Source: a virus
Lineage: Duplodnaviria > Heunggongvirae > Uroviricota > Caudoviricetes
Reading direction: 5' to 3' (one strand)
Virus record (IMG/VR): IMGVR_UViG_644736364_000003
DNA: 46,137 nt
The notes beneath the pieces were generated by a model, which was not told the DNA's origin, made no database searches, and saw only the letters and a list, made by a program, of their open reading frames with translations. Shown one piece after another: positions 1-46,137 of the stretch (position 1 is its first letter; every line of letters starts with the position of its first letter). Both the position numbers and the translations under genes were made by a program.

Positions 1-1164
1 TTACGCCTTCTTTATATCCTCCATAATTCCACAGTGGGACATATTTGGGACATTATCACCAAAAATGTCGTCTATTTTCCTTGCATGCTCTGTCAAATGA
101 TTAGGCGCAAGGTGAGCATACCTACGAACCATTTCTATGGACTCCCATCCGCCCATTTCCTGAAGCACAGATAATGGGACGCCTGACTGGATCAGCCAGC
201 TTGCCCAGGTGTGTCTGAGGTCATGGAAACGGAAATCTTCAATTCCTGCACGACGACAAGCTGATAGCCATGATGTCTTGCTGTCGATGCGCATCTTCCT
301 GACCGCAGGCGTTGATGTTCCATCTGCTCGCTTAGCCGCCTTGGTATGTACAAACACCCATTTGTGATGCTTGCCTATTTGATCACGCAACACTTTACAG
401 GCGGTATCGTTCAGCGCCACACCAATGGCGCGGTTTGATTTGCTCTCTTCTGGATTCACCCAGGCAACTCGTCGCTGCATGTCGATTTGTTGCCATTCCA
501 GATTTATGATGTTCGACTTTCTCAGACCAGTTGCCAGCGCAAACTTGACGACAGATTTCAGTGGTTCGGGGCACTCATCAATAAGGCGTTTTGCTTCCTC
601 CTTTTCCAGCCATCTGACTCGCTTGTTTCTGACCGCTGGTATCTTGATGACAGGCGCTTTTTCCAGCCACTTCCAGTCGCGTTCTGCAGCACGGAGAATG
701 GCCTTTATCATGGCAAGATGCTTTGCCTTTGTCTGAGTTGATACTGGCTTTGGTTCATAAACAGGCGGTTCTTTACCTTTCCTGATGGCGGCCTGAACTT
801 TCTGTTTCCATATTTCTTTCGTCTTTCTGTTATGCATTCTGCTTACAGCAGAGTAAATCTTTGCCTCCGAGATATCTTTAAGCCTTATACCCTCAAAATG
901 TTCAAGCCAGAACTCAATCCGGCTTTTATCTGAATCGAGAGATTTTTTATCAGCTTTTTCCTCAAGCCATCTTAGGCAGGCCTCTTCAAAAGTGACATCA
1001 GGTAAATCCCCTAGCTTTTCTACTCGCCAGAGTTCTGCTTTTCGCTTGTCGTGCAACTCCTGAGCTTGCCGCTTGTCCTTTGTGCCAAGAGATTCCTTAA
1101 TTCGTTTCCCGCCCGGGAGCGAATACGAGGCATACCATATTTCATTTCTGCGGAAGAGTGACAT
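1..1164 (-). CDS. int: Tyrosine site-specific integrase (lambda/P22 family)
   Basis: 387 aa; C-terminal catalytic region [11 protein letters not shown]...[19 protein letters not shown] typical of phage tyrosine recombinases; N-terminus resembles P22-type Int as recalled. Confidence 0.9.
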
Positions 1165-1391
1165 TTTCTTTCCTCTGTTATGCCATCACCCGCGCTCACC
1201 TGGACAGTATGCAGCGGAGACTGAAGCGCCGCAATGCAAGCTTGCCGTGTTGTGAGGTAAGGAGATTTTGGCTTGGTTGGATCTTTACGTGTTGCCTGTA
1301 GGCGGCCTGTTCGTATCCAGTTGGTGGCGGTTGGTCTGGATATCTTAAGAAACTGACAGGCCTCATCGAGTGTGAGGCTGTATGGCTCCAT
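1020..1391 (-). CDS. xis: Excisionase-like HTH protein (AlpA/Xis family)
   Basis: Start [31 protein letters not shown] with GAGGTG RBS; sits directly upstream of int; 3' end overlaps int by about 145 nt. Confidence 0.6.
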
Positions 1392-1696
1392 TATTTCACC
1401 TCTTGCTGTGTCATTGTTGAAAAATGGATACCAGCTCGTTGCTGCCAGACGATCCAACCGAGAGTCATATCCCATGCCATGTATTCGTTATCGCCGTTTT
1501 TTACTCTCCGACGATCTACTAAGTCACCGAAACGCTTTTCCATGAATAATTCATAGGCTTCGCGTTCATCTGGCTCTACTTCCAGAGATACGAGTGCGAT
1601 TTCATAAGCACGGCGCTCAATATCGTCTCGAACCTCTAGGCTGCTGATTCGTTCTTTGATTTCTTTAATCAGTTCTTTATTGGTAAATGTGGTCAT
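1391..1696 (-). CDS. Hypothetical early protein (YfdT-like by position and length)
   Basis: 101-aa ORF in leftward early operon, tightly packed with neighbours. Confidence 0.5.
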   Translation of the reverse strand: MTTFTNKELIKEIKERISSLEVRDDIERRAYEIALVSLEVEPDEREAYELFMEKRFGDLVDRRRVKNGDNEYMAWDMTLGWIVWQQRAGIHFSTMTQQEVK

Positions 1697-2058
1697 TATG
1701 CTCCAGCCTCCGGTGCTTTTGGCATTACTGCCCAGTGAGTGATATTGACGTTTTCAAGGTCCCCGACCTGAAATGTCCACTGCCATTCTCCGGTTTCTTT
1801 TTGTCCCCAGGTGTACCAGAGAGAACGCCAGCCAATCAGCCAGCCTTCTCCATTAGCATCAAATAACAGAACACTTTCATTTGCTGGTGGCAGTTCAGCT
1901 GACACTGGTATTATTTTGTTTTCCAGTGCCGCACATTTAGCTTCAAGCGCGTCGAATTTACGTACCAGGTACTCAGCATTTGTTTCGTTCACTTTCAGAT
2001 CTCGCGGTACACATTTCCCGCGAAGAAACCCTTCCATTTCGAAAACATTCATGCGCAT
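1696..2058 (-). CDS. Hypothetical early protein, DUF551-like C-terminus (YfdS-like)
   Basis: 120 aa; Trp-rich C-terminal motif GWLIGWRSLWYTWGQ...WQWTF; operon context. Confidence 0.5.
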   Translation of the reverse strand: MRMNVFEMEGFLRGKCVPRDLKVNETNAEYLVRKFDALEAKCAALENKIIPVSAELPPANESVLLFDANGEGWLIGWRSLWYTWGQKETGEWQWTFQVGDLENVNITHWAVMPKAPEAGA

Positions 2059-45559: not shown

Positions 45560-45834
45560 GAGATTTCACGTTGCGTTTCAGTGATAAAGCAGATTTCAGG
45601 GCATTTCTCAGGAAACTTAACTGGGAAGAGGACGAAGAGCTGCAGAATGCCGTTCTGGTTGATGAGATTGGTTTTACGTTCAGGGAGACAGATGTTTCTG
45701 ATGACGGAGAACCAGAATACACGCGAAACGAAGGGTACTTTGTTAATATCCGTCTTCTTGACGATGGATTTGATGATTCCGTGTTCCGTGAGTGGGTGGT
45801 TACACCAGAGCGCCCGCTCAGGGAGTGGTTTTAA
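45556..45834 (+). CDS. Hypothetical protein downstream of stf (possible fibre-assembly accessory or moron)
   Basis: 92 aa; GTG start after GGAGG, overlapping stf stop; acidic. Confidence 0.4.
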   Translation: MRDFTLRFSDKADFRAFLRKLNWEEDEELQNAVLVDEIGFTFRETDVSDDGEPEYTRNEGYFVNIRLLDDGFDDSVFREWVVTPERPLREWF

Positions 45835-45843
45835 GGATAGCAG

Positions 45844-46137
45844 ATGGATATCACGTCGATACTTCATGCGCTTTGTGCCGTGGCGGTGCAGGTACTGGCT
45901 GGTCTTTTTACCGGAAACTGGGCTTACGGGGCGATAGCCGGTTGTACGTTCTTCATTGCGCGTGAACACACCCAGGCAGAATATCGCTGGATTGAAATGT
46001 TCGGGCATGGCAAGCGGATTAACATGCCGTGGTGGGGCGGTTTTGATCCACGTGCATGGGATGTGGCAAGCCTGATGGATTTTGCTGTGCCGGTGGTGGC
46101 GTGTCTGCTGGTCTGGCTGTTGGTTAATCGTGGGTGA
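45844..46137 (+). CDS. Hypothetical small membrane protein
   Basis: 97 aa with two hydrophobic segments; AAGGA-like RBS; ends at window edge. Confidence 0.4.
   Translation: MDITSILHALCAVAVQVLAGLFTGNWAYGAIAGCTFFIAREHTQAEYRWIEMFGHGKRINMPWWGGFDPRAWDVASLMDFAVPVVACLLVWLLVNRG

Follow-up and report, generated by a model that had tools for sequence, protein, structure and literature searches.

A corrected module map of a patchwork lambdoid prophage at the argU locus of Escherichia coli

The stretch of viral DNA analyzed here, IMG/VR record IMGVR_UViG_644736364_000003 (46,137 nucleotides, called the window throughout), had been interpreted from its sequence as a product of modular recombination among lambdoid phages. 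This general interpretation was borne out. We conclude with high confidence that the window covers the left 46 kb of an approximately 50.6-kb prophage inserted at argU in E. coli, a patchwork of blocks with different nearest relatives. Identity to reference phages switched abruptly along the window between the absence of any BLASTN match and 97–100%, so the mosaic is real and goes far beyond chance. Both the identity pattern and the positions of the breakpoints are direct observations, and we found no evidence that contradicts a mosaic. The mosaicism in itself adds little, modular exchange among lambdoid phages being textbook knowledge, and the element is an ordinary and well-understood kind of object, for which the map of modules is corrected here.

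The sliding-window BLASTN identity plot that the sequence-only reading had proposed as a check was run against nine references: lambda (NC_001416), phage 21 (OL657228.1), P22, 933W, K-12 DLP12, CPS-53, mEp460, phiSTEC1575-Stx2k (hereafter Stx2k) and PhiR49_1. It revealed the mosaic and no uniform identity to a single reference phage. Per-gene protein identities were taken from a tblastn table. No single phage record spanned the window, and none covered at least 80% of bases 1-23000 in one place. For the right half, the best phage records covered about 83% at about 92% identity.

A megablast search of 5,426 complete E. coli genomes found 100% identity to the whole window in four of them, all from clinical, extraintestinal strains (MS7163, N53, N62 and CEA212U). 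In MS7163, a urine isolate, the window corresponds to NZ_CP026853.1 558199-604336, with one extra base in MS7163 between yfdP and cI. There, it starts at the stop codon of intD (RefSeq name), 15 bp past the tRNA-Arg gene argU. The attachment sites attL and attR form a repeat of 70 bp (98.6% identity) that consists of the argU 3' part and the bases immediately downstream. Since attR lies at 608790-608859, the prophage is about 50.6 kb long, and the window is without its last 4.5 kb or so (from 604337 rightward). The element thus combines an IntD-type integrase beside argU with a duplication of the argU 3' part at the far junction, as in DLP12-type elements that integrate at argU.

We considered the possibility that the mosaic is an artefact, two adjacent prophages having been taken as one or the assembly being chimeric. 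A decayed DLP12-like remnant does lie directly right of attR in MS7163. Yet int, the immunity region, Q, cos and the head-tail set each occur only once in the element, and they follow the canonical lambdoid order in the RefSeq annotation of MS7163 and in the per-gene comparison (int-xis, early-left, immunity, replication, nin, Q, lysis, cos, head, tail). Moreover, the argU-derived repeat brackets the entire element and four independent complete assemblies agree. On the strength of the repeat bracketing and the four matching assemblies, we rejected this explanation as extremely improbable. The remnant beyond attR comprises an int fragment, a tfa fragment, ybcY and a second copy of ompT, which indicates that argU holds tandem prophage material.

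The specific version of the mosaic proposed by the sequence-only reading combined lambda morphogenesis genes and a lambda cos with a P22-like int, a CPS-53-like early-left operon, phage-21-like lysis genes and an Stx-phage-like region from Q to nanS. Of its six module assignments, those of int, the early-left operon and the Q-to-nanS region hold, but those of the head genes and cosB (which belong to phage 21, not lambda) and of the lysis genes (933W/P22-like) were wrong or misleading. In its favor, the tail proteins Z, U, V and G are 96–99% identical to lambda, cosN and cosQ are the same as in lambda, and the holin belongs to the S21 family. Against these stand the proteins Nu1 to FII, which share 53–71% of their residues with lambda vs 99–100% with phage 21, a cosB that is 100% that of phage 21, an endolysin R with 32% identity to R21 vs 93% to its 933W homologue, and an Rz that is 92% identical to that of P22. 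That version is therefore refuted for head, cosB and lysis and, taken as written, is very unlikely.

The phage 21 block (bases 23000-31200) was 99.7% identical to phage 21 at the nucleotide level, with 27 substitutions and one 2-bp deletion over 8.2 kb. Of the morphogenesis genes supposed to be nearly identical to those of lambda, only the tail shaft genes Z to H (31162-36288) are so; Nu1 to FII are not, nor are M, L, K, I and J (66–87% amino-acid identity to lambda). Similarly, the proposed match of cos to lambda extends to cosQ and cosN only. Both cosQ (GGGTCCT) and the 12-nt cosN (GGGCGGCGACCT) are identical in lambda, phage 21 and the window, and so cannot discriminate lambda from 21. The tripartite cosB, which lies upstream of the small terminase gene Nu1 and completes a lambdoid cos together with cosQ and the 12-nt cosN, differs from that of lambda in its elements R3, I1, R2 and R1 (phage 21 annotation). 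Feiss et al. found that lambda and 21 share cosQ and cosN and differ in cosB and in the specificity of the small-terminase recognition helix (PMC4669245), and that these differences cause each phage to package its own DNA more than 1000-fold better (PMC4669245). As Nu1, like cosB, is 100% that of phage 21, the window is predicted to have the packaging specificity of phage 21. In contrast, the approximately 340 bp preceding cos (22658-22999) are 87% identical to the right end of lambda and unlike phage 21, which places a module junction at cosQ/cosN itself. Head and terminase genes of phage 21, an isolate from Paris sewage of the 1950s, thus circulate at 99.7% identity in present-day clinical E. 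coli beside an unrelated early region, and the block is a dated example of very recent module transfer.

Within this block, gene A, annotated as frameshifted in RefSeq, lacks, after base 24647, the dinucleotide AT that is present in phage 21 (GGGGTGATGAAA changed to GGGGTGGAAA). The deletion leads to a stop 83 nt downstream and splits the gene into two open reading frames (ORFs), 23666-24730 and 24645-25634, encoding the N- and C-terminal parts of gpA. With its terminase split, the prophage is probably unable to package DNA. We also considered that the prophage might be fully functional, the split being a sequencing error or tolerated: int, xis and the remaining essential late genes appear intact, and close relatives such as PhiR49_1 (host ECOR13) are listed as phages. 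Yet the 2-bp deletion lies outside a homopolymer, is present in all four assemblies and separates the two parts of gpA. Its non-repetitive context and the agreement of the four assemblies led us to take it as real, and full function is unlikely.

The tail shaft is where the predicted closeness to lambda (more than 90% for Z, U, V and G) was confirmed, with 97, 96, 99 and 96% amino-acid identity, respectively. Z, U, V, G, T and H are, however, equally close to phage 21. Sites that distinguish lambda from 21 were 21-like from 31000 to 32000, lambda-like from 32000 to 32250, mixed up to about 33750 and lambda-like again from 34000 to 35500. Patches of a few hundred bases between Z and H point to repeated homologous exchange in a shared gene pool. 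The slippery site of G-T (GGGAAAG at 33294) appears intact, as does the Rz1 lipoprotein ORF. From about 35990 onward, identity dropped sharply and the window differed from both phages, the proteins M to J being 64–87% identical to those of lambda and 21. For J, the figures were 72% with lambda over 69% of its length and 64% with 21 over its full length.

The lysis genes, proposed to be phage-21-like, did not prove so by sequence: S, R and Rz are 79, 32 and 49% identical to their phage 21 counterparts vs 99 and 93% (S and R) for 933W and 92% (Rz) for P22. The holin belongs to the same family as S21, with the 933W S protein as its nearest relative. The genes are 21-like in type only, with a class II holin and an endolysin that has an N-terminal hydrophobic segment resembling a signal-anchor-release (SAR) sequence; given this stretch, the mode of action of R may match that of R21. 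The insertion of a YdfR-family gene between holin and endolysin is also found in mEp460 and Stx2k, whereas holin and endolysin are adjacent in 933W.

At the left end, the prediction of a P22-like int and xis was correct in that Int and Xis share 73 and 78% of their residues with the P22 proteins, though the nearest relative is IntD of DLP12 (99%). Bases 1-1259 are 99.4% identical to K-12 DLP12 and 72% to P22 at the nucleotide level. RefSeq annotates only a 22-codon fragment of xis, as an incomplete helix-turn-helix (HTH) protein; in K-12, xisD is a truncated version of this gene, without the N-terminal half. The early-left operon is indeed CPS-53-like: bases 1329-3984 are 97.5% identical to CPS-53, and the proteins encoded by yfdT to yfdP 97–100%. 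This block is contiguous with int in phage PhiR49_1 as well (bases 1-4150 at 99.1%). The early and regulatory modules had been called non-lambda, in agreement with the absence of detectable similarity to lambda in 1-20500; nothing left of Rz resembled it.

The largest non-lambda block (3985-13178), to which the sequence-only reading had assigned no source, holds the immunity, replication and nin genes. It is mEp460/Stx2k/PhiR49_1-like, with 94–99% nucleotide identity to these phages and no BLASTN match to lambda, 21, P22 or 933W. Bases 9257-10089 are also 97% identical to yfdN/yfdM of CPS-53. In the left arm, an mEp460-type immunity region interrupts a backbone that is PhiR49_1-like (1-4150 and 9257-13345), an arrangement that reads as a classical immunity swap.

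The region from Q to nanS proved Stx-phage-like in its organization, with Q, pR', tRNAs, convergent small RNAs (sRNAs), nanS-p, S and R, and with stxAB cleanly absent. In this region only, the window is a stx-free relative of Stx phages. Bases 15591-15882, with the tRNA genes and a terminator, align with 933W 21116-21408, and bases from 15887 onward align with 933W from 22744 onward. Both flanks being aligned, the 1335 bp of 933W that contain stxA2B2 (21409-22743) are replaced by 4 bp. No stxA or stxB was found between the tRNA genes and nanS-p, nor does the RefSeq annotation of the MS7163 region contain a stx ORF. The clean empty site, with its tRNA and sRNA flanks kept, marks the exact boundaries of the toxin moron. 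Convergent sRNAs in the same arrangement and position, 3' of stx2B, were described in Sp5 by Tree et al. (PMC4104026); in the window, the 5' variable part of the AsxR-family anti-sRNA differs from the 933W copy. NanS-p itself (16336-18297) is 60% identical to its 933W homologue. Bases 14379-15882 share 92% of their nucleotides with Stx2k.

Several features of this region stand on their own. The 205-residue orphan gene is an insertion that separates Q from the pR'/qut-like segment; it had no PDB, NCBIfam or convincing Pfam match and two distant phage homologues only. The AraC-family regulator (14859-15566) lies just 5' of the tRNA genes, in the moron region of the late operon, and its resemblance to YdeO/GadX is below NCBIfam cutoffs. 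The first tRNA (15595-15670) is a tRNA-Met (anticodon CAT) according to ARAGORN and RefSeq; the annotation of its 933W homologue as ileZ, a tRNA-Ile gene, implies that the CAU anticodon is modified.

Between the immunity genes and the replication genes lie two isrK-C4-rha antirepressor cassettes in tandem. Rfam scores were 58.9 bits (isrK) and 80.7 bits (C4) for cassette 1, and 62.3 and 75.1 bits for cassette 2 (C4 being RF01695, gathering score 45). A Rha-type ORF follows each C4, and a Pfam Phage_pRha match is given for cassette 1. The repeat unit measures 863–866 bp, the two copies being merely 59–100% identical along their length. In both, complements of the C4 hairpin 2 loop occur in the cassette's own leader and at its own rha Shine-Dalgarno site, the loop CCGUAUGC facing GCAUACGG(A) in cassette 1 and UCAUGUGCGA facing UCGCACAUG(A) in cassette 2. 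The allele shared by mEp460 and Stx2k follows the same rule, with the loop CUUUGGUGA and its complement UCACCAAAG(A) in its own leader and Shine-Dalgarno site. A second segment just 3' of hairpin 2 (ACGCCAA vs UUUCCAC) likewise co-varies with the leader and downstream sites. Folding the whole C4 against its flanks produced full-length duplexes and was uninformative; direct inspection and counts of exact complements were used instead.

An IMG/VR scan seeded with a conserved exact 15-mer, and hence biased by this exact-match seed, returned 114 cassettes with 16 loop (b') alleles. Across these 114 cassettes, the longest exact complement averaged 8.6 nt to the cassette's own downstream site vs 4.3 nt to those of other alleles. 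The tail (a') segment occurred as 12 ten-nt variants with 11 distinct complementary cores; nine of the 12 had perfect 7-nt complements on both sides and three had 7 nt on one side and 5–6 nt on the other. Loop and tail alleles formed 23 combinations. Two to three cassettes were present in 8 of the 107 loci (about 7% of the sampled viral contigs), always with different alleles. Among the matches listed (best-scoring complete E. coli genomes and phage records), both cassettes of the window were found only in the four genomes with this prophage, every other listed record spanning about 915 bp and hence one cassette. In cassette 1, an RNA part of PhiR47_1 type is joined at the start codon to an N-terminal Rha domain of mEp460 type; cassette 2 has 100% identity to the lone cassette of E. 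coli O55:H7 DEC5D.

RefSeq describes the second rha as a pseudogene "missing its N-terminus", although the two rha genes are equal in length when measured from the start codon that follows the C4 target. A 382-residue ORF (6285-7433) is open through the isrK and C4 genes into rha, and its middle matches Pfam Phage_ASH. With this open frame, the Phage_ASH match and allele indels that are multiples of three, the region may be both translated and active as RNA.

Citron and Schuster reportedly described in 1990 the immI locus of P1/P7 with the layout a1 b1 / a' b' / a2 b2, to which the loop, tail and target sites of the cassettes conform. Passages of PMC12197685 and PMC6906374 summarize their immI work. 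In the isrK-orf45-anrP locus of Gifsy-1, the nucleotide sequence of orf45 is conserved and its protein sequence is not (PMC4825925); the cassette locus appears to be the E. coli counterpart of this locus. Taken together, the tandem heteroallelic cassettes and the large series of co-varying alleles suggest an RNA-based specificity system in common prophages. We tentatively propose that the two cassettes could form a two-specificity antisense immunity array, in which each C4 would silence only those antirepressor genes, resident or incoming, that carry its target pair; we regard this as possible, at slightly less than even chances. If so, carrying two cassettes would shield a prophage from induction by the antirepressors of two classes of superinfecting phages, the two-allele paradigm of P1/P7 immI would extend to a combinatorial system in lambdoid prophages, and the IsrK locus of Gifsy-1 would be linked with C4.

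The mosaic had also been invoked to explain the heterogeneity in guanine-plus-cytosine (GC) content, an idea that fared poorly. Identity-defined module boundaries explained 54% of the GC variance in 250-bp windows, vs 47.5% for circularly shifted and 45% for random boundaries (fraction reaching the observed value, 0.055 and 0.042, respectively; p about 0.05), a marginal effect only, and module boundaries were rejected as the cause of the profile. Within the phage 21 block, which has a single origin, 250-bp GC still ranged from 0.41 to 0.64. Gene-by-gene GC correlated with that of lambda, diverged head genes included (r = 0.78), and lambda is more heterogeneous than the window (standard deviation 0.082 vs 0.064). 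These four results indicate that GC is mostly a conserved gene-specific property, to which a few morons add, and not a trace of the mosaic. The left arm has a GC of 0.487 and the right arm of 0.549; the lowest values were found in the orphan gene, the immunity region, the pre-cos region and the 3' part of stf. GC skew changed sign near 5-6 kb, where transcription diverges.

How the blocks came together may be read from the positions of the joins. Homologous recombination would have occurred at short conserved stretches, such as cosQ/cosN, the border between FII and Z, the rha start codon and the patches in Z to H, with occasional illegitimate recombination accounting for some joins. Selection would then keep partners together: cosB with Nu1, the head proteins, the tail-tip proteins and each C4 RNA with its targets. 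Lambdoid phages are known for mosaicism with co-transfer of interacting genes (PMC9836094), and the cohesion of cosB-Nu1, head and tail-tip partners in the window agrees with this pattern. Three considerations weigh against the account given here. A "nearest relative" is the nearest within the small panel compared, not the actual donor; the joining mechanisms are deduced from breakpoint positions and established knowledge of lambdoid phages; and the frameshift in gene A could in principle be a shared assembly error. The patchwork nonetheless remains our interpretation of the window, and its features are listed in Table 1, where the names of the replication and nin genes derive from Pfam matches and RefSeq. 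Scanning the cargo and unassigned genes with PADLOC yielded weak matches only (WYL-like, PDC-S22 to KilA-N), and no defence system is claimed.

Table 1. Features of the argU prophage in window coordinates; percentages are amino-acid (aa) or nucleotide (nt) identities
Feature	Position	Strand	Relatives and remarks
Tyrosine integrase, IntD/P22 type	1..1164	-	99% aa DLP12 IntD, 73% P22 Int
Excisionase Xis, 123 aa, intact	1020..1391	-	78% aa to P22 Xis over 116 aa, E = 4e-65
yfdT, yfdS, yfdR, yfdQ, yfdP (early-left operon)	1391..3965	-	CPS-53 homology
cI-like repressor	4688-5380	-	Immunity region 4688..6288, 99-100% nt to mEp460 and Stx2k
cro-like gene	5478-5738	+	Immunity region, mEp460/Stx2k type
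cII/YmfL-like gene	5731-6288	+	Pfam Phage_CP76
Antirepressor cassette 1	6645..7433	+	isrK-like leader 6645-6721, C4 RNA 6746-6833, rha ATG 6888
Antirepressor cassette 2	7511..8296	+	isrK-like leader 7511-7587, C4 RNA 7609-7696, rha ATG 7751
Replication/nin-like region	8293..13166	+	Hypothetical protein, HTH_36/DnaD_N initiator, PerC (yfdN-like), Dam methylase, LexA-like protein, RusA, KilA-N, DUF968
Q antiterminator	13184..13555	+	Pfam Phage_antitermQ E = 1e-47; 62% aa DLP12 QuuD, 56% 933W Q
Orphan gene, 205 aa	13631..14248	+	GC 0.37-0.39; phrog_8498 (unknown function)
pR'/qut-like segment with terminator hairpin	14320..14402	+	Aligns with 933W 20666-20753 (annotated pR', qut, terminator), mEp460, Stx2k
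Small TrmB-like protein and AraC-family (YdeO/GadX-like) regulator	14527..15566	+	Pfam HTH_AraC E = 2e-13
Three tRNA genes: CAU, Arg-UCG, Arg-UCU	15595..15844	+	ARAGORN; 93.5% nt to 933W ileZ-argN-argO
Terminator and empty stx moron site	15859..15886	+	Flanks conserved vs 933W
STnc100 sRNA	15920-16128	+	Rfam 131.7 bits; convergent pair 15920..16183
AsxR-family anti-sRNA	16131-16183	-	Rfam 63.0 bits
nanS-p-type SASA esterase, DUF1378, DUF826	16336..18923	+	60%, 86%, 69% aa to 933W homologues
Lysis cassette	18999..20902	+	S, YdfR, R, Rz/Rz1
Class II holin S, 71 aa	18999-19214	+	99% aa 933W, 79% S21
YdfR-family gene	19219-19569	+	Between holin and endolysin
Endolysin R	19633-20166	+	93% aa 933W, 32% R21; N-terminal hydrophobic stretch YGLSAAVLALIAAGAPAP
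Rz	20465-20902	+	92% aa P22 gene 15, 49% phage 21
Rz1	20664-20849	+	Embedded in Rz; lipobox, lipoprotein ORF
KilA-N protein, small ORFs, YlcI	21104..22792	.	Pfam KilA-N; between lysis genes and cos; mostly no match in the reference panel
cos region	22658..23187	+	Lambda-like pre-cos, cosQ 22970-22976, cosN 23000-23011, phage 21 cosB 23012-23187
Packaging/head module: Nu1, A, W, B, C/Nu3, D-like, E, FI, FII	23188..31150	+	Phage 21 identity
Terminase gene A, frameshifted	23708-25634	+	RefSeq "frameshifted"
Tail shaft Z, U, V, G, G-T, H	31162..36288	+	94-99% aa to lambda and 21 (lambda 96-99%)
Tail tip M, L, K, I, J	36285..42680	+	About 75-82% nt to every reference; third lineage
lom, side tail fibre stf, two small ORFs	42748..46137	+	Lom 43% aa lambda; Stf 64%, last ORF 93% phage 21
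Right end beyond the window	to attR		tfa fragments, ybcY-like methyltransferase, alpha/beta hydrolase, ompT

Compared with known phages, the window resembles lambda in gene order, in cosQ and cosN, in the 340 bp before cos (87% nt) and in Z to H (96–99% aa), but its head genes (53–71% aa) and cosB differ, its tail tip is more distant (66–87%) and bases 1-20500 have no detectable similarity. With phage 21 it shares cosB and Nu1, A, W, B, C, D-like, E, FI and FII (99.7% nt, 99–100% aa), Z to H (94–99% aa) and the last small ORF (93%). In contrast, int, the early-left operon, immunity, replication and Q have no similarity to phage 21, R has 32%, M to J 64–86% and Stf 64% amino-acid identity, the region left of cosQ differs, and gene A is intact in phage 21. 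The likeness to 933W comprises the tRNA trio (93.5% nt), S and R (99 and 93% aa), nanS-p, DUF1378 and DUF826 in the same order, the pR'/qut-like segment and the convergent sRNA genes past the stx site. Unlike the window, 933W has stxAB, a Q and a NanS-p of only 56 and 60% identity, and structural genes of the short-tailed (podovirus) type that are unrelated to those of the window.

Bases 1708-13178 are 91–99% identical to mEp460 and Stx2k; this stretch includes cI, cro and cII, which makes homoimmunity with these phages probable. The AraC-like gene and the tRNA trio are present in Stx2k as well, at 92% identity. Both phages, however, have a single isrK-C4-rha cassette each, of a third specificity allele, and other integrase, Q and head genes, and Stx2k carries stx2k where the site of the window is empty. 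DLP12, CPS-53 and PhiR49_1 provide the same argU site and IntD (99%), and yfdP to yfdT and yfdN/M (97% nt). PhiR49_1 matches bases 1-4150 (99.1%), 9257-13345 (97.5%) and the right end past the window (ybcY, hydrolase, ompT). DLP12 and CPS-53 differ in being decayed remnants, and PhiR49_1 in having another immunity region, head genes of the lambda type and, after Q, an ompD moron.

Finally, the antirepressor cassettes resemble immI of P1/P7 in having an Rfam C4 RNA upstream of an antirepressor gene, with loop and tail complementary to sites on either side (PMC12197685, PMC6906374), and in that the downstream target site overlaps the ribosome-binding site. With isrK-orf45-anrP of Gifsy-1 they share an isrK-type leader with a terminator (PMC4825925). 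Unlike both, the window has two tandem cassettes with different loop/target alleles, a Rha-type antirepressor and a frame that is open through the RNA region.

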